A stretch of DNA of 43,345 bases, from sequence record OR352933.1. One strand, 5' to 3'. This document shows, piece after piece, positions 1-43,208 of this stretch (positions within the stretch are counted from its first letter, which is position 1; each line of letters starts with the position of its first letter). Both the position numbers and the translations under genes were made by a program. The notes under the pieces are model-generated. The model ran no database searches. It was not told the DNA's origin and saw nothing but the letters and a program-made list of their open reading frames with translations. This DNA is from Escherichia phage AV102.

Positions 1-16
1 GGGATTCAATCTAGCT
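1..16. repeat. Terminal direct repeat copy: gggattcaatctagct, also the last ~16 nt of the window
   Basis: Exact identity of window start and window end; consistent with terminal redundancy or a circularisation overlap of a complete phage genome. True repeat length cannot be judged from one copy. Confidence 0.6.
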
Positions 17-239
17 TATGTCCTTCGCGGTGTCAACCCTTTTTATCGAGTATCTAACCCTTCACACTATCTAGCTTTAATCCGGCGGAGTCTCCCGACT
101 CTGCCCCGTTCAGCGCCTCAGCGCCTCCCGGTGATTGAACTATAGCGCCAATAAACCAAAAGAAGCAAGTATTTTTTAATGCTTTTTGCAATTATTTATC
201 TCTAAGAGCAAAAAGGGTAAGCAGGGCAAATACTTAGCC

Positions 240-935
240 AATGCTTCCATTCTAGGGATAGCTCTAGGGATAGCCCAATACTAGCCAATACTAGCCAATA
301 CCATCTAACACTACACAAAGCAGAACGTAGTGCCCGTACGAAGTGAAAGGGCACGTAGTGATGCGGTGACTGTGTTGGTAATGCTTACTCCCTACGGTCG
401 TAATATAGGGCATTACTAGGGGATACTAGTGAGTAGTAGTAAGTAGTATGTATCTAGTGCCCTAAAACCCTCCTACTCCTGTAACATCATTTCAAATTAG
501 CTTTCGAATGAAAGTAAGGGTAAGGGATAGCTCTAGGGATAGCAAGGGATAACGCTAGGTGGCGGATAGTGGTGAGTAGTGGATGTGCGCCCTAGTGGGG
601 AGCGCGCAGCGTAGCATATAATCGGCACAATGTAAAGCACTAGAGATAACCCTAGAGATAGCTCTAGAGATAGCATATAGACGCACTAGCGGCGCACTGG
701 GCGGCCCACTACTGGCCCACTAGAGGCCCGCAAAATAAGCAAGGCAGAGCGCACCCCTACGCCCCACAGAGAGCACCCAGAGCGCACGCAGGGATAAACC
801 TAGTGCCTCCCAGAGCTTCCCAGAGCCTCTACAAGGAGCACATAGGGATAGGCATAGGATAGCTCCAGTGATAGCCATTAGACCGCGCAGGGAGCTTCTG
901 CGGCCCTCATGGAGCGCACTAGGGATAGCCATCTA
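240..935. repeat. Repeat-rich noncoding genome terminus with tandem and dispersed CTAG-containing 10-12-mers
   Basis: TCTAGGGATAGC x2 tandem (251-274); CTAGCCAATA x3 tandem (271-300); CTAGAGATA(A/G)C x3 tandem (640-674); further GGGATAGC copies at 524-559, 843-876 and 919-930. No credible ORF. Confidence 0.8.
471..487 (-). promoter_or_regulatory. Copy 1 of the exact 17-bp element (minus-strand ATGTTACAGGAGTAGGA); candidate phage RNA polymerase promoter near the genome end
   Basis: Plus-strand tcctactcctgtaacat, identical to 11157-11173 and 22743-22759. Lies in the noncoding terminus with no gene downstream, positionally like T7 phiOR. Confidence 0.45.
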
Positions 936-1157
936 GCCGTCTAGACACCCCCCCCCATCCTTTATACACTAGGCACCCCCTATGGGGGCACTGGGGCGCG
1001 TTGAGGGTGAGGGAGGGCCTCGCGTGAGTCTAACAAATTTCGAGTTCAGGTATACATCTGCGCAGGGGAGAAGCCCCAGTGATGTTCCAGGCGCTTCTCT
1101 TGTATGCACTTGCAACCCCTAGAGAGTATCTGTGCTCTTTAGGTGTCAGTAATATAA

Positions 1158-2678
1158 CTACCGCTGCGCTGATACCGTCCAGCCAAAGTAGTGGTCCCCC
1201 GATACATTATTACGAACACGTATAATAATGTTCTGACCAGATACCTCAAACCAGAACGGGGCGTTGATATCTGTAGTAGGAGTTACCTGAACGTAGCGAC
1301 CTTGTAAGGCGCGCGATATACCGGTAGGTACAGTAACCGAGTTGGTCCCTGAAGCCATCTTAGCTGCCCCAGTATTATAAGTAACATACTGCGGGCAGTT
1401 CTCGATGGTGACAGCTGCATCGCTAGCATTACTTATTGCACCGTTTACATTACCTCGGGCATCTACGTTAACGAACTTAACACCACTACCAATACCGTCA
1501 GATATAAAGATCCCGTAACCTTGATTATTAAACTCGAATACAGGAGTTGCACCAGCCTTAACGTTTGTGAAGTTCACATTCTGCACCCCGGCCCCTAACT
1601 CTATTCCGTGCTTCTGTCCGCGGGTTGCCATACTGTTAGCATTACAACTGATGTTACTGAAGTTAATGCCTCCTACACTATAACCTGTGAGCAGTATCCC
1701 TGAGCCTTTATTGTTAACACAGGTCAGTCCGTTAAAGTTCAGGTTCTCAAGCCCACCATTCTCAGCATTAAGGTGTACTCCAGGATGTAATGCAGTCGTC
1801 CCACAAGAACTTCCCCAGCAACCGTTGAAGTTCAGGTCTGAGACACTGGCTCCCCCCATAGGGGCAAACATTAACCCACACTCCTTACAGGTATCGCCTA
1901 AGATAGCAGTGTAGAAACTCCCCCTACACTTAGTAGCACCAGACGGTAGCCAGGCGTAACCATACTTCATTCCCAAACAGTCGATGTTAGACGCATAGAC
2001 GCCAGAGGCATTGACCTCCTTAACCCCACATCCTTTACCACCTCCTGACAGTACTAGGTTCTGCAGGAACACATCCTGAACTACAGCCGAAGAGGTATCG
2101 CCTATCACAATAACATCTTCGCTAGTAGTTGCACCGTTAATGGTACAGTTGTTTACGCGGTAAATAAACTGCTGGGGACCGCCGTGCATCTTAAGGAAGT
2201 TATAGAAGGGACCATCTACACGAACATTCTCCAGGCATAAGTTGTATCCGTTAGTCCACGTAATGAAGTCGCCGCGCGTATGTGTCCCATCCACAATAAT
2301 TTGTAGGTCACGGATATGAACATTATTAATATTGGTAGATGCTGTACCGATGGCTGCAAAAGGCACGTTAATTGCAGAGTATAAAAGTACAGTGCTGCCC
2401 TGTCCTGCTCCCACCAAATGCACATTATTATAGAATGTAAGAGAGCCCTTTAAAGTCCATGTACCAGAAGGTACAGTTACGGCCCCTCCTCCTAGGCTGT
2501 GAGCGTGATTAATCGCGGCTTGGAAGGCAGCTCGTGAGTCAGTATTACCTGGAATAGCTCCGAAGTCTGCAACACTAATGTTATCCATTAGTTTAGACTC
2601 CATGGTACGTTCAACTGCACCTGTTGCAGACGCTTTCCAGTTAACTAACCATGTAGCCACTTTGGTAAGATTTAGCAT
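1158..2678 (-). CDS. Tailspike / receptor-binding protein with pectate-lyase-like beta-helix (probable capsule or polysaccharide depolymerase)
   Basis: 506 aa. N-terminal DFGAIPGNTDSRAAFQAAINHA...GGAVTVPSGTW resembles the pectate lyase superfamily signature; Gly/Asn/Ser-rich repetitive body with many Cys; last gene of the genome. Confidence 0.75.
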   Translation of the reverse strand: MLNLTKVATWLVNWKASATGAVERTMESKLMDNISVADFGAIPGNTDSRAAFQAAINHAHSLGGGAVTVPSGTWTLKGSLTFYNNVHLVGAGQGSTVLLYSAINVPFAAIGTASTNINNVHIRDLQIIVDGTHTRGDFITWTNGYNLCLENVRVDGPFYNFLKMHGGPQQFIYRVNNCTINGATTSEDVIVIGDTSSAVVQDVFLQNLVLSGGGKGCGVKEVNASGVYASNIDCLGMKYGYAWLPSGATKCRGSFYTAILGDTCKECGLMFAPMGGASVSDLNFNGCWGSSCGTTALHPGVHLNAENGGLENLNFNGLTCVNNKGSGILLTGYSVGGINFSNISCNANSMATRGQKHGIELGAGVQNVNFTNVKAGATPVFEFNNQGYGIFISDGIGSGVKFVNVDARGNVNGAISNASDAAVTIENCPQYVTYNTGAAKMASGTNSVTVPTGISRALQGRYVQVTPTTDINAPFWFEVSGQNIIIRVRNNVSGDHYFGWTVSAQR

Positions 2679-2687
2679 TCTGTTCCC

Positions 2688-3287
2688 TTATCTAGGTATA
2701 GCGGCAACTGCCGCTTGCGTTGATTTGAATTCATTCCCTATAGCCTTAGATTCCCACATACGGCGCTCCCATAGGCCCCAGCATACCTTATTACGCTGCC
2801 CGTTAATATACTGAGAGCAGTCAAAGGTCCAGCGGTTGCCACCCTTGTACACCCAACCGGTGCCTGGGGATTTCTGCTGGTACTTGCTAATGTAACGCCA
2901 GTTCAGCACAGCCTTTCCAGCCGCTGCGTAATCTAGGTTTTTGAGGTGCCGTTTCACAGCGCTGCCATTGAAGCCGGCTACGCCTACGTTATAGATGAAG
3001 TCTACAGACCCTATCAGAGCCACGTCAGAGAGCTGCATAGGAAGCCCGTCAAGAGCCTTAGCATGTTCCCCTGCTGATTCTATCAGTTGCTTCTGACAGT
3101 CGCTCAGCGTGGCTCTCTGACCCATTTTGACACCCTTTGTCTCCCCGTAGCAGATCGTAGGGATACCGGCACTGTCCTTGTAGGCTGTAAGACTCAAACC
3201 TTCATTGTGCTGGACTACCTCAGTAATAGCCCCGCCAAGCATAGTAGCCCCGGCGAGTGCAGCTATAACCCTAGTCCTTAAACTCAT
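2688..3287 (-). CDS. Endolysin, T4-lysozyme-like muramidase (GH24) with signal-arrest-release N-terminus
   Basis: Catalytic E-x8-D-x5-T context (NEGLSLTAYKDSAGIPTICYGET); Gly/Ala-rich weakly hydrophobic N-terminus RVIAALAGATMLGGAIT. Start moved to the internal Met at 3287 (RBS AAGGGGG upstream); the track ORF extends to 3311. Confidence 0.8.
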   Translation of the reverse strand: MSLRTRVIAALAGATMLGGAITEVVQHNEGLSLTAYKDSAGIPTICYGETKGVKMGQRATLSDCQKQLIESAGEHAKALDGLPMQLSDVALIGSVDFIYNVGVAGFNGSAVKRHLKNLDYAAAGKAVLNWRYISKYQQKSPGTGWVYKGGNRWTFDCSQYINGQRNKVCWGLWERRMWESKAIGNEFKSTQAAVAAIPR

Positions 3288-3522
3288 ATTTAATAGCCCC
3301 CTTACGTGCATGCTCCTCTAGGAGCTTGTATGTGCGCCATTTATAGTACGCATTCCACGCCAGGGTTAGCACTGCACACACCGTCGCAGTGATGAAGCTG
3401 ATAACACTCCAGTCCCAACTCCTTAGCTCTGCCAACCAACCTCCTGAGACTGTAGCACCAGTAACAGCTGCTCCTGCCCGGGTAGCGAGGTCTGCCCCAA
3501 CTACATCTCCCACTTTAATCAT
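3271..3522 (-). CDS. Holin, pinholin-like
   Basis: 83 aa; Gly/Ala-rich weak first TMD, strongly hydrophobic second TMD (WSVISFITATVCAVLTLAW), charged C-terminus; sits directly upstream of the SAR endolysin. Confidence 0.55.
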   Translation of the reverse strand: MIKVGDVVGADLATRAGAAVTGATVSGGWLAELRSWDWSVISFITATVCAVLTLAWNAYYKWRTYKLLEEHARKGAIKYEFKD

Positions 3523-4114: not shown

Positions 4115-4492
4115 TTATGCTGCAGCAGCGTTAGTCGCTGCTACGAAGGCCGACTGTAGGGCCGTGAATGAGTTGTCGAAGTCTGTACCGGAACCCTCAC
4201 CTAGCGGCATACCTGTACCAGTGAGCGCTACGTAGCCGGTCTTGCTAAGCTGGAACAGCATGGAGAACAGTCGCGCCTGCAGGGTGCCATCATCCTTAAA
4301 GGATTCCCCGACAGCTGTAGCCGGGTAGCCTTGGGACTCCATGTAGGTAAAGAACGCGTTGAATTTATCCAGCGCACCCGTACCCACAAAGCCGACATTG
4401 TAGTCAGGGGCCACCTCTTTCTCAAGGTTTTGGCTCTTGCCTACAATGGCGTACTGTACATCCGCAGACTTAGCCGCGATGATTGATGCCAT
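4115..4492 (-). CDS. Hypothetical protein (125 aa)
   Basis: ORF immediately downstream of the large terminase, 1-nt overlap; no recognisable motif. Confidence 0.5.
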   Translation of the reverse strand: MASIIAAKSADVQYAIVGKSQNLEKEVAPDYNVGFVGTGALDKFNAFFTYMESQGYPATAVGESFKDDGTLQARLFSMLFQLSKTGYVALTGTGMPLGEGSGTDFDNSFTALQSAFVAATNAAAA

Positions 4493-6348
4493 TATCGTCT
4501 TCCTCTATGTTGTTTGCCTCTACCCCGACTTTGCAGCCGTGCAGCGACTCCCCGCAACTGTTTCTGGACCATACCCTGCGCCCAGTCCAACGGGTTATTG
4601 ATGAATGCTAGTGCCTGCTTCTCAGACTCTCGTGCAGCTACCACTTTCTCGTCTTCTACTAGATGCCCGTTCAGTACTGCGACCATCATAGCGATGGCGT
4701 CTGCTCGGTCATCCTTAGCCAAGCTACCCCGGTCATACGTAATACCTGCGAGCTGTGCGAACGCAGAGTACAACCAGCGACGATCTCGGGAGTATCGCAT
4801 ACAAGTCCCAATATCATCGTGAATAGCACGCTCATGCACCACTAGGCGGTGTCGTCGAGTTACTGGGCTGATTGTGTCTATAATACGACGTTCTTTCTGC
4901 GTGGTGTTGTTAATGTCACGCACACCAATACCAGCAAGGCGACGCTCCCTCAGGCGGTTCAGAATCAACATAGACACAGTACCGTGCCCCATGTTACTCT
5001 CCACCACCATGTCAGAGATATCCAACTCTACGCACAAATCAATGAGCTTATCGATATTCTCAGTGCTTACGCCTCCTTGGAAACCCCCAACGGAGAACAA
5101 GTGAATGTATGAGTTTGCAGCCCCACCAGCAGCATAGGAGACTTCATCCCCACCACAACCAGCTGGGTCCACCACCAGCACCTTGTGCTGATACGGCAAG
5201 TGCATATCTCCGTAGAATGCCGGGAAGTACATCTGCTGACCCATAATCCCCTCATGCTCGTGCTGGTATAAGTACCGGCGGTCCGCAATATAGGAGAAGG
5301 TCTCTGGGGAGGAATCCTGGCTACCAGAGTAAACCAGCATATCCGAAAGCTTGATACGTGTACGCATCTGGTCGGACAGGGTTGTGTCGAGCATGTACTG
5401 CAGCTGGAAGCCTTCCGGACCAAAGTCCAGCTCCTTCTCAATCAGCGCATCCTCGTCATAGCGCCCGGGGTCCGTGCTCTCCCCTAGCGTCCCGTCGACA
5501 CCGAAGCCGGTGCGTTTATAGCCGCGCTCAATAAGCTCCAGGATATAAGGAGCAAGTGTACTTCCATATCGCTCTTCCATTTCAACAGACGGAATGCGCC
5601 CAGGCCACACGCGGACCTCGAAGCCACGTCCCGGCAGTGTTTTATAGATACTGTCCTTGGTCTGTGGTGTACCCAGGTACAGCGTATCCCCGTGCGTACA
5701 GATGGCCGCGAAGTCTTTAGAAATCGTCAGCAGCTGCTCGCGCTGGGTTTGCGTTAAGCCGTTCTTGGTGGTCTCGATATCGTCCGGAATCAGTAGGTCC
5801 GCACGCTTCCCCTGTAGGGATGCAGTGATACCTACACAGGCTACGCTGGCGGACTTATCCAGAGGTTTCAGGTCACAGTGTACGTCGTAACCTTCAAAGG
5901 AGGTTCGGTCCCCACGTGTAGGGTCAGCCTTCAAGTAGCACAGCAGCGGCCAGGTTTCCAGCATCCGAATGATTAAGTTTGCTACATCGGAAGCCTGCTT
6001 CTCAGCACCCGACACAATCAGGATACGGCAGGATTGGTCCTGGATGAGCCTCCAGACAGCGTAGAGCGCAGCTAGTGTAGACTTAGCCTCACCACGCTGT
6101 GCAGCCACCATGCGCTTCCTAGGGCCCTTCTGCATATACTCCGCAATGTCGGCTTGCATGTCCGTGAGCGTAAAGCCTAGGAAGCGCATGCCTATATATG
6201 CGAACTCCCTGAAATTACTGAGGGTAGCCGCCATCATCATGGCGATATCCTCGCGCTCCTCTTTGGGAATACTGCGCGGGTTCGCATTATAACCAGTAAG
6301 TTTCTGGTTGAGCATGCGCAGTCTTCGCGCAGTCTTCACCGATACCAT
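4492..6348 (-). CDS. Terminase large subunit (DNA maturase B)
   Basis: 618 aa; size and position after the small terminase match T7 gp19-like arrangement. Confidence 0.8.
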   Translation of the reverse strand: MVSVKTARRLRMLNQKLTGYNANPRSIPKEEREDIAMMMAATLSNFREFAYIGMRFLGFTLTDMQADIAEYMQKGPRKRMVAAQRGEAKSTLAALYAVWRLIQDQSCRILIVSGAEKQASDVANLIIRMLETWPLLCYLKADPTRGDRTSFEGYDVHCDLKPLDKSASVACVGITASLQGKRADLLIPDDIETTKNGLTQTQREQLLTISKDFAAICTHGDTLYLGTPQTKDSIYKTLPGRGFEVRVWPGRIPSVEMEERYGSTLAPYILELIERGYKRTGFGVDGTLGESTDPGRYDEDALIEKELDFGPEGFQLQYMLDTTLSDQMRTRIKLSDMLVYSGSQDSSPETFSYIADRRYLYQHEHEGIMGQQMYFPAFYGDMHLPYQHKVLVVDPAGCGGDEVSYAAGGAANSYIHLFSVGGFQGGVSTENIDKLIDLCVELDISDMVVESNMGHGTVSMLILNRLRERRLAGIGVRDINNTTQKERRIIDTISPVTRRHRLVVHERAIHDDIGTCMRYSRDRRWLYSAFAQLAGITYDRGSLAKDDRADAIAMMVAVLNGHLVEDEKVVAARESEKQALAFINNPLDWAQGMVQKQLRGVAARLQSRGRGKQHRGRR

Positions 6349-6656
6349 TAGACAATTCCTTCTAGTAAGTCCTCAGAGTCTGAACCACTAATCTTGTTTA
6401 AAATCTCTTTCTTACGCGCCTCTCTGCGCGCCGCTAGTTCGTCATCGAATTCATCACGTAGCTCCTGCATCTCCTCGGAATCTGCATCGGCGGTGATGTC
6501 ATTGTCTTTCAGGAACTTGGCAATAACAGATTTATCGGCAGCCGGTAAAGGGACCGCATCTTCCCCGGCCTGACGCAGCTCCTCAATGAGCGCCTCCGTG
6601 AACATTCGGTGCAGGTCACTGAGTCTGCTACGCGTTCCTGCCTTGGATACAGCCAT
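6348..6656 (-). CDS. Terminase small subunit (DNA maturase A), putative
   Basis: 102 aa acidic protein immediately upstream of and overlapping the large terminase; position equivalent to T7 gp18. Confidence 0.55.
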   Translation of the reverse strand: MAVSKAGTRSRLSDLHRMFTEALIEELRQAGEDAVPLPAADKSVIAKFLKDNDITADADSEEMQELRDEFDDELAARREARKKEILNKISGSDSEDLLEGIV

Positions 6657-11967: not shown

Positions 11968-14652
11968 TTAGTGTGTTACCTCAAACATCCAGTTACGCAG
12001 CCCTTGCTCCAGATATTTCTTACGTTTAGGCTGTGCCTGCTTGTAAGCTGGGGTATTGCGCAGTGCTTGCCAAGCCTTACCTTGGGCCTCCGATACAGGA
12101 TACTGGTAAGCCCCTACAGGGGTCTTAGATGCCTTACGTACCTGTGCCACGGCCTCTGCTACAGGGCCAGAACTCCCGTTGCCACCATGATAGTTCAAGT
12201 CAACCATAACCTTCAGGGCATCCGCAGAGGCGCTTAGGCCCTGCCCACGCAGTTGCTTGTTCACGTTCGGGATGTACTGCTGCTCCAGAGAGGATTTCAG
12301 AATGCTGATACCATCGTCGATAGTAACCTTCTTAGGAACAGGCATACCGGAGTTGTTGTGCAGACCAAAACCTACACTGCCGTTACCTCTACCTTCCCGG
12401 AACCCTTCAAACTGCATGATATTGGCGAGAATCTCACTAAATAAAGAGGGTTCTACACCAGCCCCATTACGACCATTGACCTGAACACTTACAGCTCTGC
12501 CGTTGTCATGATCGTAGAAAGTAGCTGGGCGGATACCAACTTGCTCGCTGCCAATCTTCATCTCACCAGCCAGCGCCTTGTTGTAAGCATCCTGCGCAGT
12601 AGATTGAACATCCTGTAGATTCACAGACATAGTCTGAAAGGTACCCTTCTTGTCGAATACGGTGACAGTCATATTCTGTGCTGAGTTGCCTGCTGTAGCA
12701 GCCTGCACTACTACGCGCTCAAGGTTGCTTGGGTCGATTAAGGCGTTGACCTGGTTCTGAATCTGCTGCTGCAGAGACGACTTGAACTGCTCCTGGTCTC
12801 CTCGATAATCCCCCATTAGGGATTGAATAGAAGTCCCAGCTGGCAGGTACACGTGCCGAGGAGCCCCAGAGATATCTAACTCCAGCTTACGGGCTTGGAT
12901 GTTACCTTTGAGCATCGTGTTGATATCATCAGGATCCTTACCAACTAACGCCTCTGGGTTGTGATTGTATACGTACCGATACTCTTCCTCCATAGCGGCG
13001 CGCGCTTCCTGGCGCTGTGCGTCAGCTGTGCCGAAGAAGCTGAACCAGTTAGCAGTGCCACTCGGATCCACCATTTTGTCTGTGGGGTTGCTACTGATGT
13101 TGCTGTAGCGCCCGCTAGCCTTGTTACGGGCCTGGCGACGCAGGTCGTCCAGAATGGTGTTGCTAGCGTTATTGGGGTTCTGTGCAATGGCCTTCTGAAC
13201 CACCCCCTGCCACTCAGATGGGACTTCAGACAGCAGAGCCATCTTACCTAAGTCGGTACTGGTACTATATGCTTGGGCCCACAGGTTGATGCTATTGACA
13301 TTCTCCTTGGACACCTGCCCATCCTCACCTAACTGGTCCAGTGTAGTGAGGGTGCGCGCCATATCCGAGGACATGCGCTTGTATGCTTCATTGATGGCCC
13401 ACGCATCTTTACTATTGCTACCATAAGCCAGTAGCTGCAAGTTCCCCTCTGGAGTGTCTGGGAAGTTTTTGAGTACCTGTGACCGGGCCTTATCCAAATC
13501 CCCTTTAAACATACCAGCTAAGGTGGATGTAGGAAGGTTTCCTGTGATGGCACTACGTAAAGCCTGTGTATCGGCAGTCTTCTCCCTGATAGTCTGAGCC
13601 TTGTTCCAGAACTCCATACTGGTGCCGGGGCTCAGTACATCCGTAGCAGATAGCTCAATCACGCGGTTGCGGATACGCTGCATCGTCTGCTCCTGCTCTT
13701 CTGGGGACTGCCCCTCCAGAGACTGAATTGCATCTGAGATTTCAAAGCGAGCCTGAGTCTCAATCTGAGCCCCAGCACGCTTAAATTCCTGATACAAGGC
13801 AGCATTAACGTCTACAGAGTTAACACCAAGCTCTTTAGTTGCCATTTCCTGCAACTGGTTGATGATTAGAGGGTCCTGGGTCTGCTGCGCTACACTAACC
13901 AGATACTGCTTGGCCCGGTCCAACTTCTTGGACTTATCCAGGTGCTCAGCTGCCAGGATACTATCCAACCCTGTCTTAATTGACATCTGTGCAGCAGCAC
14001 CCTGCCCAGCATCCAGGCGCTGATAGAACTCATCAACGGAGGAGCTGAGCCCACGGTCCAGCGCACGGTCTGCTTGTGCTACTGCAAACTCTGCGCGACC
14101 TTTCTGGAAGGCCGTGTAGTTAGCTAAGCTGGTTGCACGGAGCTGTTGCAGTACCGCCGTAGCGGACTGTTTGGACATATCCGGAAGATACATACCGAGC
14201 TTGTCAGACATAGCTTGAACATGCTCTTGCTCCTGCTGGTGAAATTCCTCATCAGTCAGTCCAGCCTCAGCTGCCTTCTTAGCGCGAGTAATACTATCCG
14301 TACGCCACTTAGCTAGAGAATCGTAGGCCGCAGCAGATACATAACCATCCTGGTAGGCTTCTCGTACAAATAGGTTCTGCTTCTGCACTGCCTCATCTTT
14401 AGAGGCCATTGCATCTACTGCACCCTGGGCATCCATAGCACCCCGCACAGTGGCTGCTGCTGCGTTTTCTTTTACTGCTGCATCAAATCCTATGCCGAAG
14501 TCCTGGACAAAGCCAGAGAGTGCTGCAAGGCGGTTTGCTTTGGACGTGTCTACTACTACATCCCCGACTGTAGAGGGCAAGTTAACCTCGTTGGCCTGCA
14601 ATTGCACGCCGCCGATATTTAGACCCTGTCGGTTGGGTTGAATTACAGGCAT
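11968..14652 (-). CDS. Internal virion protein, gp15-like
   Basis: 894 aa; position between gp14-like and gp16-like genes. Confidence 0.7.
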   Translation of the reverse strand: MPVIQPNRQGLNIGGVQLQANEVNLPSTVGDVVVDTSKANRLAALSGFVQDFGIGFDAAVKENAAAATVRGAMDAQGAVDAMASKDEAVQKQNLFVREAYQDGYVSAAAYDSLAKWRTDSITRAKKAAEAGLTDEEFHQQEQEHVQAMSDKLGMYLPDMSKQSATAVLQQLRATSLANYTAFQKGRAEFAVAQADRALDRGLSSSVDEFYQRLDAGQGAAAQMSIKTGLDSILAAEHLDKSKKLDRAKQYLVSVAQQTQDPLIINQLQEMATKELGVNSVDVNAALYQEFKRAGAQIETQARFEISDAIQSLEGQSPEEQEQTMQRIRNRVIELSATDVLSPGTSMEFWNKAQTIREKTADTQALRSAITGNLPTSTLAGMFKGDLDKARSQVLKNFPDTPEGNLQLLAYGSNSKDAWAINEAYKRMSSDMARTLTTLDQLGEDGQVSKENVNSINLWAQAYSTSTDLGKMALLSEVPSEWQGVVQKAIAQNPNNASNTILDDLRRQARNKASGRYSNISSNPTDKMVDPSGTANWFSFFGTADAQRQEARAAMEEEYRYVYNHNPEALVGKDPDDINTMLKGNIQARKLELDISGAPRHVYLPAGTSIQSLMGDYRGDQEQFKSSLQQQIQNQVNALIDPSNLERVVVQAATAGNSAQNMTVTVFDKKGTFQTMSVNLQDVQSTAQDAYNKALAGEMKIGSEQVGIRPATFYDHDNGRAVSVQVNGRNGAGVEPSLFSEILANIMQFEGFREGRGNGSVGFGLHNNSGMPVPKKVTIDDGISILKSSLEQQYIPNVNKQLRGQGLSASADALKVMVDLNYHGGNGSSGPVAEAVAQVRKASKTPVGAYQYPVSEAQGKAWQALRNTPAYKQAQPKRKKYLEQGLRNWMFEVTH

Positions 14653-18502: not shown

Positions 18503-19522
18503 TTAGGGCTTGGTGGTGAAGGTGAACTTAGTCACTGCCGCTGTATCAGGACGACGCAGACCGATGTTATACATCGCGTAGCAGTCCAGAACGTTGTTGA
18601 ACTCGCGCTGGTCATCCCAGATACGAGAAGTGAATGGTTTAGCTTCTACCGTCACCAAGGTCTTGGACTTACTGAAAGTTACCATGCGACATTTCGCATC
18701 ATCCTCAGTGACCGTGTAAGCGGTACCCAGCGGATGCGTACCAGCCTCAGTTGGGAACTCAGTACACTCTACTACCGGCACACCGTTCATCTTCACAACC
18801 CGGCGGTTCTTGTAACCATCGTCGTTGGTTGCGCCGAACTCAATATTTAACAGCTTCGGATGCTCCAGCAGACGCGAATAGGTATCGACATCCACCAGGG
18901 TAATCATGTCCGCCAGCGGAGTCTTACGCTTGATGAGTTCATCAATACCAGCCTTGTGGGCCAGGTTGATGTTCATGGCGTTCGCTTCCATCTCAGCCTG
19001 AGTCAGCTGCTTATCTGGAGTACTACCCGCTACGAGGATGGAGGCACCGACTTCAATACCGTCGTTGAATGCAGGCTTCAGGTGCGCTGGTGCAACCCAG
19101 GAACGGCCCTTGATGAGCTGAATCAGGTGCGCCTGGTCAAAGGTCTCCGCGAACTCTGAACCGTTGTTCTGACCTAGCTCAGAGAGGAAGTCCGGACCAG
19201 TCCAGTCGTCCTGGTAGTCGATTGGGTTACGGATGTACAGCACCGTATCCACTACGATAATCATCTTATCGTTACGGACCGGAGTGCTATCCAGCGCTTC
19301 ACCAGAACGACGACCCTTCACCGCAGAGGTATTCAGGCGGTCGATACGGTAGGTGTTAGAGCCGCTGATAGAGCGCTGGCTAGAGAGGCCTAGGAACAGC
19401 GCCTGGTACTGGAAGCGGGTGTCCACTTCGTTCTGGTACACTTCCAGGTGAATATCGACGTCGGACGCCGCGCCGCCCCAATGTGGACGAGTGTCACCAG
19501 CTTTATAAATAGTATCTGCCAT
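18503..19522 (-). CDS. Major capsid protein
   Basis: 339 aa; position after scaffold; size typical of T7-like gp10. Confidence 0.85.
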   Translation of the reverse strand: MADTIYKAGDTRPHWGGAASDVDIHLEVYQNEVDTRFQYQALFLGLSSQRSISGSNTYRIDRLNTSAVKGRRSGEALDSTPVRNDKMIIVVDTVLYIRNPIDYQDDWTGPDFLSELGQNNGSEFAETFDQAHLIQLIKGRSWVAPAHLKPAFNDGIEVGASILVAGSTPDKQLTQAEMEANAMNINLAHKAGIDELIKRKTPLADMITLVDVDTYSRLLEHPKLLNIEFGATNDDGYKNRRVVKMNGVPVVECTEFPTEAGTHPLGTAYTVTEDDAKCRMVTFSKSKTLVTVEAKPFTSRIWDDQREFNNVLDCYAMYNIGLRRPDTAAVTKFTFTTKP

Positions 19523-20433: not shown

Positions 20434-22029
20434 TTAGCCCGGTAACAGGCCTAGTTGTTGTCCTGCTACGGCAGGATCCGCTGCCTGGAGATCTTGTACC
20501 TGCGACTGTGCTTGTGCTGCTGATGCCGCCGCTGCATTATCTTGAACTTGCTGCTTCTCTTGCAGTTGCTCTTCTGTGAGCATGAACGGTCCACTTACAA
20601 TACCGTATGCATCCAAGTACCAATCTACGCATGCATCTTCATTAAAGCGAGGAGTAAGCTGTTTGAGCACAGGAATAGCCAGCTGCATAGCCTGGGTAGC
20701 TTCTAGCAGTTTATCTGCTGCTGCTGCTTTAGCTAGTGCTGCAGTACCTACCATCACGTTGATATCCACTACACCCTCGGTGAGGTACACCTTGAACTTA
20801 GGATATGCCACGATAGTATACAGGTACGCGAGCTTACGCAGCCAGGAGTCACTGAGGATGCTGAATCCACCACCCATAGCGTACTCTGCCTCTTTAGCAT
20901 TCTGACGAATCTCATAAGCAGTTACACGCTCACCCTGTCGAGCATTGCCGGTGTACATAAACGCACGAGCCAGTTTCTGCTCAAGCATCTGAATGTCGCT
21001 AGCAATCCACTGAATCTTTTGAGCTGCACCGCCTTCATAAGCTGTGACAGGAGACTTGGTGTTACCATTACTACCACCACCACCAACCTGTACGGCCTCA
21101 CCGGTCTCGGCTTGAGAGAACTCGTCAACGTCCAAGCCGGAACTGGCATCGACCATAGGGATAAGACGGGAGGCTTCAATCTCGTAGTTGGTCAACGCTT
21201 CGGTCAGCACAGACAGTCGCGCAAAGTCACCCGCATAGTCTTCCACCAGACCGCGTCCATAGTGCTCACCGTTAACCAGGTTCCACACCAATACGTTATA
21301 CGGAAGTTCCAGCTCAGGGTAGGTGCTGCTCTCGCCTAGGCGACGACCATCAACTTCTTGATACACCTCATAGCTTACTGCTTCTTCTCCATTTGGAAGG
21401 TGCTTAATCTTACGACAAGCGGCAGTGTAGATATCAATGTCGCTGTATGGGTCCCGGCCGTTGTAGTATGTTCTTTGGATATCTTCTGGGAGGTCCTGGA
21501 TGCTGGCGCGCTCTTTGATAATGAGTCGCAGCACGTTCCCGCTACCATCCCTTCGAACGGTAAAGTTACGGACCGAGTAGATAATGGATTTCCCGGTTCT
21601 TTCATCGATATACTCCAATGCGTTCCCGGTGATAAGCAGCAACTTCACAGCTTGAAGCTTAGCAGCATACCCATCCTTCTCAAACACCTTCTGAGAGGCG
21701 GTGTTCTCTACCTCGGATAAACGGGATTCCGCAGTGCTGGAACTTCCCAGACTACTAATAAAGTTGTCAAGGGCTGCACTCTTAGAGAACCGAAAGAAGC
21801 TAGTACCTTGCGGGAATAATGCACCTACAATTTTAGTCGCTGCTGTATTGACCAGCTGAGCACCTGTACTCTGATAGTCTCGACTAAGCTGCATACGCCG
21901 CCCATCAGTATAGAGCTCTCGGGTAAAGATTGTAGGTAGCGTCCACTCAGCAAACTTCTCTGACGCATCCAGTACGCCAGCATCCTGGTCCCCCAGGAAT
22001 AGTTCCGCTAATGTCTTTTTATAGTCCAA
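20434..22029 (-). CDS. Portal (head-tail connector) protein
   Basis: 531 aa (T7 gp8 is 536 aa); first large gene of the structural module. Confidence 0.85.
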   Translation of the reverse strand: MDYKKTLAELFLGDQDAGVLDASEKFAEWTLPTIFTRELYTDGRRMQLSRDYQSTGAQLVNTAATKIVGALFPQGTSFFRFSKSAALDNFISSLGSSSTAESRLSEVENTASQKVFEKDGYAAKLQAVKLLLITGNALEYIDERTGKSIIYSVRNFTVRRDGSGNVLRLIIKERASIQDLPEDIQRTYYNGRDPYSDIDIYTAACRKIKHLPNGEEAVSYEVYQEVDGRRLGESSTYPELELPYNVLVWNLVNGEHYGRGLVEDYAGDFARLSVLTEALTNYEIEASRLIPMVDASSGLDVDEFSQAETGEAVQVGGGGSNGNTKSPVTAYEGGAAQKIQWIASDIQMLEQKLARAFMYTGNARQGERVTAYEIRQNAKEAEYAMGGGFSILSDSWLRKLAYLYTIVAYPKFKVYLTEGVVDINVMVGTAALAKAAAADKLLEATQAMQLAIPVLKQLTPRFNEDACVDWYLDAYGIVSGPFMLTEEQLQEKQQVQDNAAAASAAQAQSQVQDLQAADPAVAGQQLGLLPG

Positions 22030-23113: not shown

Positions 23114-25582
23114 TCAACAAAAGAAGAATGGAGATTCAAGCACTTGTCGGATGTCCAAAGTACCGATTGCAGGCATCTCTAAATCTGTGAGGTCTGCCCC
23201 TGCTTCGGCAGCTGCCCGGGTAATATCTCCAAGCAGATCGTGCTCCTCGTACAACTTCACAAACTGTTCACGGATATGTCGGTGCAGGGCATCTACATCA
23301 ACCGCGTGAGTAGCCATTGAGTCGTGAATCGGGACAATATCCAGACCCTCTGCAGCACAGAGCACCATCATGAGGTGTGTGCTATCTAGGCTATGCACAA
23401 AGTTCGGGGCAATACCAGAGGCAGCCTTGCGCTTATTACAGGTCTTAAAGTCACGGTTGTGCACCAGCACGGCAGATAGGTTCATACAATCAATACGTAC
23501 ACGCACCTCCTCTCGCTGAGAGTACCGGTTCATCACCAGCCCACCTAGCGGGGTCTTCCACTGCAGATGCTGACTAGCAGGTACACGCCTAGCGAGGTTC
23601 TGCAGATACCCCATAGCTGCTGCTGCTGCTGGGTTAGCTTCCTCAATAGCGCTACGCATTCTAGGGGCAAGGTAGCAGGATAAGTTCCAGAGACTGTGCG
23701 TGTCTGTTCCTTCATACCCCTCTTCACAGGCCCCTGCAAAGATGTAGTCGCTGCAGCTGCGCACCGTGGCGCTGTAGAAGTAGGTCATGCTAGGACGCTT
23801 GGTCATGTTTCGAGTAATCTCGTTCTCTCTCCAGTACGTGCTCTGGATAACGAAATCCTCTTTGTCCAGGTCCAGTATCACCTTCTCGTCCGTACGGCGC
23901 TTCACGTCCATATACAGATCCGCTTTCTTGTCGTTACCCTCCCAGTACAGGTTCGTCAGGCGTCCGCCTACAGGGTCTCTCAGGAGCGCTGAGAGGTGCT
24001 GCCCACCTGAGTTTGTAGCATCCATAGCAACTGGGATTCGGCTAATATACTCTTCTGGGCATCCAGAACGTACAGCATTAACCAAGTCGATAGCGGATGC
24101 TAGGAAGCACCAAGGGCTGTCGGCGGAGGTAAAAGCAGGGCAATCAAAAGGAGAATCCGCGAGCTGCTCAATCTCTGCAAAGTTTGCATCAACCCAAGCT
24201 GCGCGGTCTTCGAATAGGGTTTTGTCATAACCAAAGCAGGTAGCGACGTGCACTTTAAGCCAGAATAACCCTCTCTCTCCCAGAGGTTTACCTCGTCCGA
24301 ATTCAAGAAGTGCCTTCTGCAAATCAGAACCTTGGGGGTGCAGTGAGGACTTGAAGTACAGCCGGTACCGCCAATCCACACAGGTTGGGAAGTACAGGGC
24401 TTTCTCATCTTTGAATTCCTCTGCCATCTCTAGCGTGGTCAATAGACTACGTAGTTGCGACACACGTTTACGGTCGGCGCTGTACCATAAGGACATACGC
24501 GTCTTCCACTCTCCGAAGCGGTCGAGTTCCTCCTCGGTGTAATTCTCTTTTGGTACACCATCTAAGTACCACTCAGGTTTCGGATCTGGCACTGAGCGCG
24601 GCATACCTACACCAATACCTAAGGCCCGTGCTTCTTGTACCAGTTCCAGTATTCGCTTATTAATGCGATAAGGAGTTTCCTGCGCCTTATTAAGTGCCTT
24701 CTTGATACCGTCCGCAGACTTAAATGCTTCCGCTACTTCACGCAGTCTGGCGCGGTCAATGTGTGAGTTGTGGTACGTCCCACGGTTATCGATTGGGGTG
24801 AGGTATCCACCATCCCACAATGTAGTATGTGGCACCGGCGGTACCAGCATCGGAGGCTTCATAGTTACAGTGTCAGCAGATTCCACTAACTGCTGAAATG
24901 CTTCCATAACATTATCTGCGGGATAGAGCATACTCAAGTTCCCGCTACCAGTCTTCCACTGGAACAGCCCCGTCTCAAACACTGCGGAACACAGCAGACG
25001 TCCCACAGCAATATTCTGAGCGTTGGTCCAAGGCTCATGCCCATAGTGCACGTTCTCAGCACTGGCGCGGAGCGTACGCAGAATGTGCGTAGGCGACTTA
25101 GTACGGCGCTCAGTGAGGTATTCATATACCCGGTCCATATATGCTGGGGCAACATTACGCAGTTGTAGGGCCAGCAGCTCTGACTGTACATTCCTACCCA
25201 GAGCGGACATCACTGCCTGAGCTGTCTGGCGGCGACTGGCGGACTCACCAGGGGCGACACTGAACGCCTCAAACATTGTGCACAGGCTCAGAGTAGTTAG
25301 GACATCCAAGGGGACTAAGCGTAGGAATCGGCGGTACTTTCCACCGATACCCGGGGCTTTGACGTTACGCATTTCCTCAATGGCTGCAGAGGCCACGTCG
25401 TACGCAGAGGTTAGCATGCGCTGAGCCATAGGCAGGTTCATAATCCCGCCGTTTTGCAGAGCATCGGTAATCAATTTGCGAGCACGTTCAATGCCGCGAA
25501 TCTTGTAGGTCTCTTCAAGCTCCAACTGACGTTCCACCAGCGCTTCATCTGGTACTACAACCGTATTCAGGGCGCTAATCAT
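23114..25582 (-). CDS. Single-subunit DNA-dependent RNA polymerase (T7-like)
   Basis: 822 aa; AMDATNSGGQHLSALLRD and IHDSMATHA resemble conserved T7 RNA polymerase catalytic motifs; located late, next to the structural genes. Confidence 0.9.
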   Translation of the reverse strand: MISALNTVVVPDEALVERQLELEETYKIRGIERARKLITDALQNGGIMNLPMAQRMLTSAYDVASAAIEEMRNVKAPGIGGKYRRFLRLVPLDVLTTLSLCTMFEAFSVAPGESASRRQTAQAVMSALGRNVQSELLALQLRNVAPAYMDRVYEYLTERRTKSPTHILRTLRASAENVHYGHEPWTNAQNIAVGRLLCSAVFETGLFQWKTGSGNLSMLYPADNVMEAFQQLVESADTVTMKPPMLVPPVPHTTLWDGGYLTPIDNRGTYHNSHIDRARLREVAEAFKSADGIKKALNKAQETPYRINKRILELVQEARALGIGVGMPRSVPDPKPEWYLDGVPKENYTEEELDRFGEWKTRMSLWYSADRKRVSQLRSLLTTLEMAEEFKDEKALYFPTCVDWRYRLYFKSSLHPQGSDLQKALLEFGRGKPLGERGLFWLKVHVATCFGYDKTLFEDRAAWVDANFAEIEQLADSPFDCPAFTSADSPWCFLASAIDLVNAVRSGCPEEYISRIPVAMDATNSGGQHLSALLRDPVGGRLTNLYWEGNDKKADLYMDVKRRTDEKVILDLDKEDFVIQSTYWRENEITRNMTKRPSMTYFYSATVRSCSDYIFAGACEEGYEGTDTHSLWNLSCYLAPRMRSAIEEANPAAAAAMGYLQNLARRVPASQHLQWKTPLGGLVMNRYSQREEVRVRIDCMNLSAVLVHNRDFKTCNKRKAASGIAPNFVHSLDSTHLMMVLCAAEGLDIVPIHDSMATHAVDVDALHRHIREQFVKLYEEHDLLGDITRAAAEAGADLTDLEMPAIGTLDIRQVLESPFFFC

Positions 25583-31704: not shown

Positions 31705-31926
31705 TCACTCCGCTATAAGTTTGTACTCTCCAGAGAAGAAGGTAATACCATCCCCAGGCTTCTCTGAATTATTGTCTGGATTCATTAACTCCACCTCCCA
31801 GAATTCGGGGTCATAAGATATCACACGATGCTGAGTGCCTGGTGCAAAGTAATCACGATGTCTAGGCTCTAAGGGTTCCGGCCCAAGTCCTAGTATCTCC
31901 ACAATACTACCCGGTTTAATAGTCAC
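31705..31926 (-). CDS. Hypothetical protein (73 aa)
   Basis: ORF immediately downstream of the DNA polymerase gene, 4-nt overlap. Confidence 0.5.
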   Translation of the reverse strand: MTIKPGSIVEILGLGPEPLEPRHRDYFAPGTQHRVISYDPEFWEVELMNPDNNSEKPGDGITFFSGEYKLIAE

Positions 31927-34289
31927 TCTACTTTCTCCTTACTGTACATACTTGTACCCATTTCAGCTTCCGCTGGAAACGGGACTTCGCCAATGATGCC
32001 GTAGTTAGGCCAGAGCTGGTGAATACGCTTAGGTGCATCCTCCATACACTGCTTAACTAACAGGCTCGCTTCTCTACCTACTTCCGGATTAGCACTATCC
32101 AGATACAATGCATCGTGCACGTTCGTAATCAAGCACACCTGATTATTGAACCAATCCCGTGCCAGCATTGCACGCAGAACCATACCAGCTGCTACCGCCA
32201 TCAGGAAGAATGCCTCACCCTGACACCAGTAGTTAGCCATCTCAGTTTCTTTGTAGTCCATCACCTTTTGTTTGCGCTGGCCAGGGACTACTTCCTTCCA
32301 CTGCTCCTTCTGGCGGAAGCTGTACCGTGCACCAGCTGGGCTGGTCCAGGTGCCAATGCGGTAGATGCGGTAGCTGCCATCATCCGCTTGCTCCCGGTAC
32401 ATGCGCCCAGCCGCCCCGGTGCGCTCTACCTCCTCCTTTACTACCGCCCGGAATCCGATGGTGTCTGGGAACAGCTTCGCCTCGTTATCCAGGAACGACT
32501 GTGCATACTCCACTGTACAGCCTGTAGCAAACGCAATCCCTTTAGCCGTAGCCCCGTACTGTGCAGCAAAGCTCGGAGGCTTAATGTCCGTACGCTGCTG
32601 CTTCCAGTATTTGTAGTCCGGCCCATCTGCGTTGTGGCAGAGGTCGTACATCTCTTCGTAGGTTTTGCCCTCCTTGAACGCTAGGCGGTAGCAGTGCATA
32701 TCCGTGCCGTTCTGCAGCAAACCCAACAGCTTCCTGTCTCCGGTGTGCACACAAGACATAACCACTTCCAGGGCAGAGTAATCAACCTCAGTGATACGAC
32801 CGGATTCCCCGAAACGGGAAGTGAACATCTGTTTTACTTTACTAGTTCCATCTCGCGGGAGGTTCTGGAGGTTTGGGTTAGAGCCAGATAGTCGCCCGGT
32901 AACAGTAGCACAGGTGTTAAGGCGGTGGTGGATAATACCCGAACCATCAGGGTTCTGAGGTATAACATATTGGAGCATGCCTGAGGTCTTTTTAATTGAC
33001 CCATCTTCGTTATACTCCGTTCGTAGATAGTAAGTTCCTGTATCCTTTTCCAGAGCGCCCAGCTCGTTCACCAATCTACAGAACTCAAACCCATGACGGG
33101 CCAGCGCTTCCATTGCGTCTGTACTGGTGCTGTAGACTGGTGTGCCGTCCTGCAGGCACCGGGCTTGCCTGAACTCTCCGCGCTCAGCATATTTCTCTCG
33201 GAGTACCTCTGGGAGCTCTTGGATGTTAACCAGGCCCGGGCAGAAGTAGAGGTCGTCCTCCCATTTGAGTTTCTCTTCCGCTGTATCTATGCGGAAAACT
33301 TTTGGTAAGCCCTTGTTCTTACCGGCCTTGTAAGTAACGAAGTTGTGTGCACCACTGACATCCGTACTTTCACAAGGTACAAACGTCCCCTCTGTACCTT
33401 GCACTAGATAGGCATCCACCTTCACATACTGCGGTGGGTCGTAGGGCACCTTCTTGCGGTACTTGATAGGGCCGCCATATACCAGCGCAGACATGTGGAA
33501 GTCAGACCCGAAGTTGAAATCCAACGTCTCCGGTAAGTCCTTGGGGATATACTGCTGCAGCTCCTGCTTAATCTCCAGGATACGCTGCTCCTGTTCCTCT
33601 TGGTTCTTGCGTGCAATAGGCATGTTCACGAACAGGCCGAACCATTCGCAGTAGGCCCAAGCCAGCAACGCATCCATACGCTCCCATACGTACTGCATCT
33701 GATTACGCTGGGCGAAGATATTGCACTGCCCGTAGAAGCACATGGCCGTGTTCGGGATATCCCCATTAACCAGGTAGTCGTGCAGCAGCATCGGGTCAAT
33801 CTGGGAGGTTAACACGCCCTGCTCCCAGAGAATCTTAACCCCATCTACTTTGTGCGTACCACCATACTTAGGAGCCGTCTCGTCCAGTGACGGATACATG
33901 CTCTGAAAGTCCGAGGCGATGTATTCCCCGTGCATTGTGCAGAACACCCTGCCGCCGCGCTTGAGGAAGGCCTCAAACTGCTGCCGCTGGTACGTGAGAA
34001 ACCAAGAAATCTCATAGGCTGCGTTGTGCGCAACAATAAGCCAGCAATCCTCGGGGATATGAAACCACCGGCAGCCTTCTGCTGCACTGTTTCCCGCCAA
34101 GAAATCAGCTCTTGAATTGAAGCGCACCGATTGAGTCGCGCCAACAGTGGTAGTACCGTCAGCCTGTGTCGTGTCGATACGCCATGCGGACTCAACAACA
34201 TAGTTGTCAGGGCAGTATGGGCTTGCTTTAGAGCCATAATATTCATTGTTCTCCGTCTCCAAGTCGATGTGCATTATACTGGTTGTCAT
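31923..34289 (-). CDS. DNA polymerase, family A (T7 gp5-like) with 3'-5' exonuclease domain
   Basis: IDLETEN (Exo I), DYSALEVV (motif A), KPPSFAAQYGATAKG (motif B), NVHDALYLD (motif C). Start set at MTTSIM (34289; RBS GGGAGG); the track ORF extends to 34307. Confidence 0.9.
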   Translation of the reverse strand: MTTSIMHIDLETENNEYYGSKASPYCPDNYVVESAWRIDTTQADGTTTVGATQSVRFNSRADFLAGNSAAEGCRWFHIPEDCWLIVAHNAAYEISWFLTYQRQQFEAFLKRGGRVFCTMHGEYIASDFQSMYPSLDETAPKYGGTHKVDGVKILWEQGVLTSQIDPMLLHDYLVNGDIPNTAMCFYGQCNIFAQRNQMQYVWERMDALLAWAYCEWFGLFVNMPIARKNQEEQEQRILEIKQELQQYIPKDLPETLDFNFGSDFHMSALVYGGPIKYRKKVPYDPPQYVKVDAYLVQGTEGTFVPCESTDVSGAHNFVTYKAGKNKGLPKVFRIDTAEEKLKWEDDLYFCPGLVNIQELPEVLREKYAERGEFRQARCLQDGTPVYSTSTDAMEALARHGFEFCRLVNELGALEKDTGTYYLRTEYNEDGSIKKTSGMLQYVIPQNPDGSGIIHHRLNTCATVTGRLSGSNPNLQNLPRDGTSKVKQMFTSRFGESGRITEVDYSALEVVMSCVHTGDRKLLGLLQNGTDMHCYRLAFKEGKTYEEMYDLCHNADGPDYKYWKQQRTDIKPPSFAAQYGATAKGIAFATGCTVEYAQSFLDNEAKLFPDTIGFRAVVKEEVERTGAAGRMYREQADDGSYRIYRIGTWTSPAGARYSFRQKEQWKEVVPGQRKQKVMDYKETEMANYWCQGEAFFLMAVAAGMVLRAMLARDWFNNQVCLITNVHDALYLDSANPEVGREASLLVKQCMEDAPKRIHQLWPNYGIIGEVPFPAEAEMGTSMYSKEKVE

Positions 34290-34468
34290 TGTACAGTTGC
34301 CTCCCACACTTGGAATCTACCTGTTACGTACTGGGCAGTGCATTCATCTGCTACAGCTTTACCGTGAGCCTCTGCGTCTTCCTTTTTGTGCCACAAGGTT
34401 ATATGCTCACCGAAGTGGTCATACCCGTCTGTTTCCCAAGTCTCACATACCCATACTTTCATTTCCAT
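34286..34468 (-). CDS. Hypothetical protein (60 aa)
   Basis: ORF abutting the polymerase start; preceded by a further possible 51-aa ORF (34459-34614) with a GGAGG RBS. Confidence 0.4.
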   Translation of the reverse strand: MEMKVWVCETWETDGYDHFGEHITLWHKKEDAEAHGKAVADECTAQYVTGRFQVWEATVQ

Positions 34469-34665: not shown

Positions 34666-35946
34666 TCACTTGTTAATCTGCCCTTCGTTAAAGCGGCACC
34701 TACCTGGGTCGAACGCTACCTCGAACTGTAGTAGCGACTCTTTACCTGATAGAGCCATCTTGTTTTTTGGTGTGCTGATACCACGAATGTTTTGCATATG
34801 CGGCTGCTCGTTCCTGTCCAAGCACCCCATCATAATCGCCAAATCCAAAGCACCTTGTACACCAATCTTACTCTGTTTCATTGCCGTGAGCGGAGGGAAC
34901 AGCAGGTTGTAACCTTCGAGTGAAAGCTGCATAGTACCGATAACGGCACAGTCATTCTCACACCCCAGGATACGCAGCTCCTGCCACTTCGCTTCTAGAT
35001 TCTGGTGCTCGCTCTCCATAGTACCACCACGGATGTTCGCCACCATGTCAATGATGATTACCGCTGGGCGCATCTCCTCCATGAGCGTAGAGATTTGAGC
35101 CATCGTAAGGGAGTGCGCTGCCTTGATACGGATGCGGTCTGCCCTACCTACTTTCTCCAGATAGGCTGGCACAAACTCTTGCTTACTGTGCCTGTCCTTA
35201 ATCTCAGCCAGAGTCCAATGCAGCGCCGCTTGATATACCCTCGGCACAGTGCGCGTCGCCGGGCCTTCATTAACCAACCATAGAATCGGACGGTCTCCGT
35301 ATACTTCCGGTTGTTGCTGCATCTGCTTAGCAAAGTCCACAGCAATAGCAGCGAGTAGGCTAGTTTTACCAGAATCAACAGGGGCAGCCACAGCAATACA
35401 ATCACCACCGCGAAGCCCACGGATGTTATTAGAGAGTTGCTCAAATACACCCAGCTTAAGACCGCCACTTTCATCAGTTGCGGCAAGTATCTCATCAACA
35501 CTTCCGCTCTCCCACTCTAGTAGCGAATCATGAACAGCAGCACCATCACCGTACTTGCGCTGGAGGTGCTTCATCTCCAGCAGATAATCAACCTCCTCGC
35601 CGTCTTGGTAGCGCTGTGTGAGCGCTGCAACCTCTCCGCTGTACGCCAGCTCGTTCAGGGTCTGCACAATCCCCACCACAGAATCCTGTGGTACGGCTTG
35701 TACTCCTCGCATAAGCTCGTCCATGATTACCCTCTCTTCCCGGGATAAGTGTCCGGCCCGGAGATTGAGCATACTCTGCATTGCGTCCCACTGCACCTCC
35801 TGGTGCTCCGGGTACGTGTTCCAGTACAACCCCACCCAGTCCAGTAGGTTAGAGGTATCGGGGGCGAGCATGCTCTTGGGTATCTGCTCTCGCAGTCGGT
35901 TCCAGACCTTCTGTGTGCACATTGCCTTGACTACTATTAGGTCCAA
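34666..35946 (-). CDS. Replicative DNA helicase (DnaB/gp4 helicase-like)
   Basis: Walker A AAPVDSGKTSLL; 426 aa; separate from the primase. Confidence 0.8.
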   Translation of the reverse strand: MDLIVVKAMCTQKVWNRLREQIPKSMLAPDTSNLLDWVGLYWNTYPEHQEVQWDAMQSMLNLRAGHLSREERVIMDELMRGVQAVPQDSVVGIVQTLNELAYSGEVAALTQRYQDGEEVDYLLEMKHLQRKYGDGAAVHDSLLEWESGSVDEILAATDESGGLKLGVFEQLSNNIRGLRGGDCIAVAAPVDSGKTSLLAAIAVDFAKQMQQQPEVYGDRPILWLVNEGPATRTVPRVYQAALHWTLAEIKDRHSKQEFVPAYLEKVGRADRIRIKAAHSLTMAQISTLMEEMRPAVIIIDMVANIRGGTMESEHQNLEAKWQELRILGCENDCAVIGTMQLSLEGYNLLFPPLTAMKQSKIGVQGALDLAIMMGCLDRNEQPHMQNIRGISTPKNKMALSGKESLLQFEVAFDPGRCRFNEGQINK

Positions 35947-36171: not shown

Positions 36172-36377
36172 TAAACCTCCACTTTGTGGATGGTACTCTT
36201 TCTGGCATGTACTCGACACAGGCTCTCTGCCTCATGAAGGTTGGGGTACGTGTTAGTACCCACCCCACGCCCGGATCTGCACAGTTGCCACCAGCGCACC
36301 GGAAACCACCAGAACTTAACCTGCGCCTCAAATCCTGCGTAGTTGTCCTGCACTACTCTGTACTTATTCTTAAACAT
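36171..36377 (-). CDS. Hypothetical protein (68 aa, Trp-rich)
   Basis: ORF between primase and the zinc-ribbon protein. Confidence 0.45.
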   Translation of the reverse strand: MFKNKYRVVQDNYAGFEAQVKFWWFPVRWWQLCRSGRGVGTNTYPNLHEAESLCRVHARKSTIHKVEV

Positions 36378-43179: not shown

Positions 43180-43208
43180 AAGTTACTAGGTGAATCGGAA
43201 CTTGTCAA
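43180..43208 (-). promoter_or_regulatory. Candidate host sigma70-type early promoter
   Basis: Minus-strand TTGACA (43208-43203), 17-nt spacer, weak -10 TAACTT (43185-43180); AT-rich upstream; about 270 nt before the first gene. Confidence 0.3.

Follow-up and report, generated by a model that had tools for sequence, protein, structure and literature searches.

We identified the DNA deposited as OR352933.1 (Escherichia phage AV102; 43,345 nucleotides, the whole of which was analyzed and is hereafter called the window) as the complete genome of a Drulisvirus, a KP34-like podophage of the T7 supergroup (Autographiviridae, Slopekvirinae). Our preferred reading, to which we assign a probability of about 85%, is that the record is a closed assembly, written as the reverse complement and opened arbitrarily in the early noncoding region with a 16-base overlap between its ends, and that the direct terminal repeat of the virion DNA would correspond to positions 747-1012. 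Circularization overlaps and the T7-like repeat of Drulisvirus are both already well known, and the value of the result is mainly practical. An end overlap in an assembly is a sign of completeness and not a locator of the terminal repeat; here the two are ~730 bp apart. To represent the virion DNA, the record would be trimmed by 16 bases, reverse-complemented, reopened at window position 1012 and extended at its far end with the 266-bp repeat, for a length of ~43,595 bp.

A complete Drulisvirus genome in reverse orientation

BLAST searches of the phage collection returned between 245 and 304 related records, nearly all of them Drulisvirus phages of Klebsiella, Escherichia or Shigella, with Klebsiella phages in the majority. 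The closest genome was that of Minorna (MK598851, Drulisvirus minorna), which is 96.5% identical over window positions 999-26948 and 85-94% identical elsewhere; the highest identity over a long stretch to any record of the collection was 96.7%, and a 40-mer specific to the window had no match in IMG/VR. The two genomes align in seven collinear blocks that run from window position 2 to 43187 and continue across the ends, with position 1 of Minorna at window position 999. The assignment to Drulisvirus rests on the 96.5-96.7% identity to Drulisvirus minorna, on the single-subunit RNA polymerase and on the location of the genes on one strand. All of the long ORFs with homologues among annotated genes lie on the minus strand, and the window shows the usual early-to-late order in reverse complement.

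A first-pass annotation made from the letters of the window had described it as a probable whole phage genome with a full early-to-late gene set. The collinearity with the complete genome of Minorna over the full length confirms the first statement, and the same collinearity together with PHROG and Pfam matches to the key genes (Table 1) supports the second. Trimming one copy of the 16-mer shared by the two ends leaves one full genome, with nothing absent or doubled by comparison with Minorna, and a unique length of 43,329 bp in a genus whose records span 42.5-44.8 kb. This length is also the published size of fHe-Kpn01, a coincidence between different phages, as the fHe-Kpn01 figure counts both copies of its terminal repeat.

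Table 1. Features of the window relevant to its completeness, orientation and ends (positions on the deposited strand)
Feature	Position	Strand	Evidence or remark
16-mer, genuine single genomic copy	1-16	+	Single copy in relatives
Sigma-70-type early promoter, TTGACA-17 nt-TAGATT	8-36	-	Consensus scan, 10/12 matches
CTAG(G/A)GATAGC short-repeat cluster, partly 12-nt tandem	252-929	+	8 of the 10 matches; in and next to the predicted repeat
Predicted direct terminal repeat, 266 bp	747-1012	-	Alignment with relatives' ends; one copy here
Hairpin motif CCCCCATAGGGGG, 5-bp G:C stem, 3-nt loop	976-988	-	nt 25-37 from the predicted left end
Unique spacer, tailspike stop to right repeat copy	1013-1157	-	145 bp
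Tailspike, pectate-lyase-like domain, last gene	1158-2678	-	PF12708, E = 1.9e-14; Minorna homologue is a pectate lyase superfamily protein
Endolysin	2688-3311	-	PHROGs/Pfam
Terminase large subunit, T7 type	4492-6348	-	PF22530 Terminase-T7_RNaseH-like, E = 9e-31, 106.8 bits (cut-off 27); PHROG 38
Terminase small subunit	6348-6656	-	PF11123 DNA_Packaging_2, E = 4e-19, 68.8 bits (cut-off 27.5); PHROG 891
Capsid	18503-19522	-	PHROGs/Pfam
Portal	20434-22029	-	PHROGs/Pfam
Single-subunit RNA polymerase	23114-25582	-	PHROG 414, E = 5e-275; PF00940
DNA polymerase	31923-34307	-	PHROGs/Pfam
Helicase	34666-35946	-	PHROGs/Pfam
Primase	36370-37158	-	PHROGs/Pfam
First conserved early gene (71 aa)	42691-42906	-	Homologues SU552A_01, KP34 gp1, AttikonH1_6 and Minorna_056, each 216 nt
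16-mer duplicate, circularization overlap, to trim	43330-43345	+	Gap-free join with one copy

The last gene ends at position 1158 and the first conserved early gene, which forms the inner limit of the noncoding left-end region, begins at 42906. The noncoding stretch between them (42907-43345 plus 17-1157) measures ~1.58 kb and contains no ORF longer than 76 aa, in agreement with the 1.6-kb noncoding region over the window ends that had been described before. Small ORFs in 1-1157, some of them annotated as hypothetical in relatives, are all of 70 aa or less and lie in repeat-rich sequence. On the late side of this region, the tailspike gene is common to the window and Minorna only; the other relatives align from ~2730 onward, which points to the tailspike as an exchangeable host-range module. 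No PHROG match to the tailspike was found at 1e-10, and a search for an identical protein on record also gave none. In SAA231, KpV71, NTUH-K2044-K1-1, Bp5 and BUCT86, an HNH endonuclease is annotated under the stretch homologous to window positions 1013-1157; the HNH gene of SAA231 sits between the tail fiber gene and the right repeat.

A direct terminal repeat predicted from the ends of relatives

Five relatives (fHe-Kpn01, AttikonH1, SAA231, KP34 and KpV71) are deposited with the terminal repeat at both ends. The repeat was mapped experimentally in fHe-Kpn01 (MN380459; 222 bp) and is present at both record ends in AttikonH1 (247 bp) and SAA231 (268 bp). In KP34 (NC_013649) we read the left repeat, which is 216 bp long (1-216), and in KpV71 the element is annotated as a 'long_terminal_repeat'. 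The length in the genus thus ranges from 216 to 268 bp, and it is the borders of the repeat, not its length, that are conserved. The ends of fHe-Kpn01 are blunt, as established with PhageTerm, restriction digests, fragment ligation and Sanger sequencing (PMC7291057).

We mapped the borders on the window by multiple alignment with the reverse complement of positions 1200-601. The left ends of fHe-Kpn01, AttikonH1, SAA231 and KP34 all start with CCTCACCCT(C/G)AACG, with one extra C in KP34, and this start corresponds to window position 1012 and the sequence downward from it. The repeats of the relatives finish with ...GGG(T)GCGCTC or ...GGGTGCGCTC at window position 747, except that the repeat of SAA231 is two bases longer and extends to 745. 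In a separate BLAST comparison, the records of KpV71, NTUH-K2044-K1-1 and SAA231 had their right ends at window positions 745-747. By homology, the left physical end would be at 1012 and the right one at 747 (745 if as in SAA231 and KpV71). The left-end motif was present in all nine of the relatives' sequences searched. In eight of these the inner-border motif followed 215-301 nt past it, the inner border of fHe-Kpn01 being a variant; the spacing in the window is 266 nt. Furthermore, the records of four relatives end within 14 nt of window position 1012 (EC22.5-2 at 1023, KPV811 and cmc20192 at 1010, and Minorna at 998/999). From these alignments we predict a direct terminal repeat of ~266 bp at 747-1012 and virion DNA of ~43,595 bp.

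The resemblance to fHe-Kpn01 and KP34 extends beyond the left-end motif to the hairpin motif at nt 25-37 or 26-38, the inner border (...G(T)GCGCTC), the gene order and the early promoter with the 16-mer ~0.9-1.0 kb from the left end. Unlike these two records, the window is rotated, is in reverse complement and has a single repeat copy. Its predicted repeat is also longer than theirs (266 bp), with ~75-80% identity inside, and its nearest relatives infect E. coli and Shigella, whereas fHe-Kpn01 and KP34 are Klebsiella phages. SU552A proved unsuitable for placing the repeat: the repeat annotated at its left end (1-149) disagrees with the 32 bp annotated at its right end, and the record begins inside the repeat. 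The left end of phiKMV was likewise set aside as a guide, as its resemblance is partial (CCCCCGTAGG) and uninformative.

The first-pass annotation had proposed that the true repeat is longer than the 16-mer and lies in the noncoding region across the window ends. The homology-based prediction of 266 bp upholds the greater length and the noncoding location but not the position across the ends, since 747-1012 is wholly inside the window. Nor could we retain the 16-mer as a part or marker of the terminal repeat, given the distance to the predicted repeat (~730 bp) and its single copy in the relatives.

The presence of one repeat copy in the record is what assembly would be expected to produce. 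Reads from the two copies, or from concatemers, would merge, so that the repeat collapses and the graph closes to a circle. Assemblers routinely collapse the Drulisvirus terminal repeat, as two independent contigs illustrate: an IMG/VR contig (L011) and a Logan contig (L015, SRR30938820_47944) both pass from the late genes into the early region with just one copy of the repeat in between. The Logan contig, from an unrelated SRA run, is 96.4% identical to the window and is the only sequence in which an identical large terminase was found. Its end (13860-13989) consists of CACTAGTATT in tandem, the counterpart of window positions ~414-450; short tandem repeats of the left noncoding region break assemblies.

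On the late side, the 28 nt that adjoin the repeat (AAATTTGTTAGACTCACGCGAGGCCCTC, 1013-1040) are conserved, and the upstream 30-mer beside the repeat is kept in the window, Minorna, the IMG/VR contig and the Logan contig, which are the sequences that reach that far. We infer that AAATTTGTTAGACTCACGCGAGGCCCTC could provide a context for recognition or cutting by the terminase. Other details of the sequence in and around the predicted repeat concern its composition. A run of nine C occupies positions 948-956, and the G run at the same place on the canonical strand comprises 11 G in AttikonH1 and SAA231 and reads GGGGGCGGGG in fHe-Kpn01 and KP34; sequencing errors are a risk in this homopolymer, whose length likely varies. 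At 744-767 on the minus strand, a terminator-like hairpin with CTTGCTTATT after it lies across the inner border of the repeat at 747, and TGCCTTGCTTATTTTG, just beyond this border, is conserved genus-wide.

Putative T7-like signals for end processing

The T7-type terminase of the window (Table 1) is accompanied by T7-like motifs at the predicted left end. The terminal hexamer, YCTCAC in both phages, reads CCTCAC in the window and TCTCAC in T7. The 13-nt hairpin motif 25-26 nt from the left end is identical in the two phages and has one exact copy in the window, on the minus strand; it occupies nt 25-37 in fHe-Kpn01 and nt 26-38 in KP34 and T7. The phages also share arrays of short repeats around the terminal repeat (CCTAAAG in T7 and CTAGGGATAGC in the window) and host promoters after it. 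The short, exact direct terminal repeat of T7, which measures 160 bp, resembles in kind the one predicted here, yet the repeat sequences are otherwise unrelated and T7 belongs to the Studiervirinae rather than the Slopekvirinae. Because the T7 hexamer and the position of the hairpin are conserved in a different subfamily, the comparison suggests that end processing is common to the Autographiviridae.

By homology, the virion DNA of the phage would be linear, with an exact direct terminal repeat of ~266 bp. If the T7 pathway applies, replication would generate concatemers joined through one repeat copy, and the T7-type terminase would cut them between ...GAGGCCCTC and CCTCACCC... and between ...GGGTGCGCTC and TGCCTT... 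Packaging would then duplicate the repeat, possibly via a hairpin intermediate such as the one that Chung, Nardone and Hinkle reportedly proposed for T7 in 1990. To our knowledge, hairpin-primed duplication has been studied in T7 and T3 alone. By analogy, the conserved CCCCCATAGGGGG hairpin, which lies 25 nt inside the left end, probably has here the function proposed for it in T7. Cohesive ends were considered and dropped, since the family, the type of terminase and the blunt ends of fHe-Kpn01 all oppose them.

Headful packaging and the Minorna announcement

The least improbable alternative is a headful-packaged genome, circularly permuted and terminally redundant, without fixed ends. Under it, the 16-mer would remain an overlap of the assembly, and no defined repeat would exist at 747-1012. 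Support for this alternative comes from the announcement of Minorna, in which PhageTerm predicted headful packaging (PMC6554615). This is the sole read-based statement for the E. coli-infecting subclade. It is also the kind of outcome that the first-pass annotation had named as contrary to a terminal repeat, now reported for the closest relative of the phage (PMC6554615). Furthermore, none of the Minorna-like, E. coli-infecting subclade members examined is deposited with the repeat at both ends.

Minorna is in most respects a counterpart of the window: the genomes are collinear, written in the same reversed orientation and equipped with the same tailspike, and each record holds one repeat copy. 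They differ in that the record of Minorna opens at window position 998/999, 13 nt from the predicted end, without an overlap, and in that its early region is only 85-92% identical. The announcement, however, calls this podophage a myophage and describes its Drulisvirus relatives KPV811 and KpV48 as 'T1-like' (PMC6554615), in conflict with the GenBank taxonomy, the gene content and the terminase type, all of which make Minorna a Drulisvirus podophage. The window and Minorna alike retain both border motifs of the repeat and the terminal hairpin in full. Because of the errors in the announcement, the T7-type terminase and the intact end motifs of Minorna, we give the headful report little weight. 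Fixed, blunt ends have been demonstrated experimentally in close relatives, and several assemblies have a break no more than 14 nt from the predicted end, all of which makes headful packaging of this phage unlikely. A more specific version, in which the Minorna-like, E. coli-infecting branch really switched to headful packaging while keeping the T7-type terminase, the borders and the hairpin, so that 747-1012 would be a relic or a pac region, is in our judgment very unlikely.

The 16-mer at the record ends is a circularization overlap

The overlap at the ends of the closed assembly consists of GGGATTCAATCTAGCT, which an exact search of the window located at 1-16 and 43330-43345 of the plus strand (16/16 identical). 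The positions given in the first-pass annotation were exact, and no further copy with up to two mismatches was found on either strand of the window. By chance, 0.02 matches would be expected, and none of 100 shuffles gave two. The match reaches both window ends and cannot be extended, as the adjoining sequences are TATGTCC... at 17-40 and ...CTTACTTC at 43306-43329.

Seven relatives (AttikonH1, SAA231, EC22.5-2, Minorna, SU552A, fHe-Kpn01 and KP34) carry the 16-mer once, with 0-2 mismatches. Joined so that position 1 follows position 43329 and the 16-mer is kept once, the sequence forms one unbroken alignment block with EC22.5-2 and one with SAA231, and the other relatives also align over the join without a gap; the alignment with EC22.5-2 is near-identical at the base level on both sides of the join, without a gap. 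In support of this join, an exact 35-mer spanning it was found in an independent IMG/VR contig (IMGVR_UViG_3300029996_000023). The site also has an identity of its own, as the 16-mer spans the -10 box of the early promoter and the likely start region just downstream. This promoter (Table 1) is the homologue of the annotated KP34 promoter at 931-959 (TTGACACCGCGAAGAACATAAGCTAGATT), and the annotated promoter of SU552A at 874-902 is its counterpart, judged by the position of the 16-mer. The single copy in relatives, the continuity of the sequence through it and the presence of a promoter -10 box show that the 16-mer is one internal genomic site printed twice, that is, a circularization overlap and not a terminal repeat. 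Of the two readings that the first-pass annotation had left side by side, the gap-free join thus favors the overlap, and the single copy in relatives, ~1 kb inside the left end, counts against the terminal repeat.

It could still be argued that the 16-mer is the genuine terminal repeat, or its outer part, and that the virion ends are the window ends, given that a genome-length record has identical ends and that the family does have direct terminal repeats. Yet every relative examined has the site once, in the interior of its genome. The left ends of fHe-Kpn01, KP34 and AttikonH1 are ~1,000 nt away from it (894-1024 nt in SU552A, KP34 and fHe-Kpn01), and the site overlaps with a conserved promoter. 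Among the 30 listed relatives there is no record that ends there, and the repeats of the genus are 216-268 bp long. We consider this explanation highly improbable. The notion of a real duplication, dispersed or tandem, in an incomplete linear contig that broke at both copies of the 16-mer, which could draw on the tendency of assemblers to break at repeats and on the richness of the noncoding region in short repeats, is barely credible in view of a unique length typical for the genus, a comparison with complete Minorna in which nothing is absent, and a one-copy join that is gap-free to EC22.5-2 and SAA231.

As a circularization overlap, the 16-mer is similar to the end overlaps that tools such as CheckV label 'DTR', in which a closed assembly is likewise recognized by a k-mer that both ends of a genome-length contig share, and the 'DTR' label has served as a completeness call for a Drulisvirus. 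The overlap differs from these in its size. The usual detection threshold for end repeats is 20 bases, and automatic tools would probably miss an overlap of 16. It is also shorter than the overlaps typical of common assemblers and their k values.

Short repeats and a conservation step around the opening point

The noncoding region in which the closed assembly was opened is rich in short repeats (families D1-D4). The motif CTAG(G/A)GATAGC, for which 3.8 matches would be expected in the whole window, was found 10 times, with eight of the matches in 252-929 and 12-nt tandem copies at 252-274 and 640-674. Conservation shifts sharply ~10 nt to the left of the 16-mer (43229-43329 versus 1-160). Genus-wide conservation covers the promoter and, in the orientation of the phage, 160 nt upstream of it. 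The transcribed leader (43229-43320) varies among relatives or has been replaced in them. Such a step between leader and promoter could, in a mixed sample, form a branch in the assembly graph, which might account for the point at which the record was opened.
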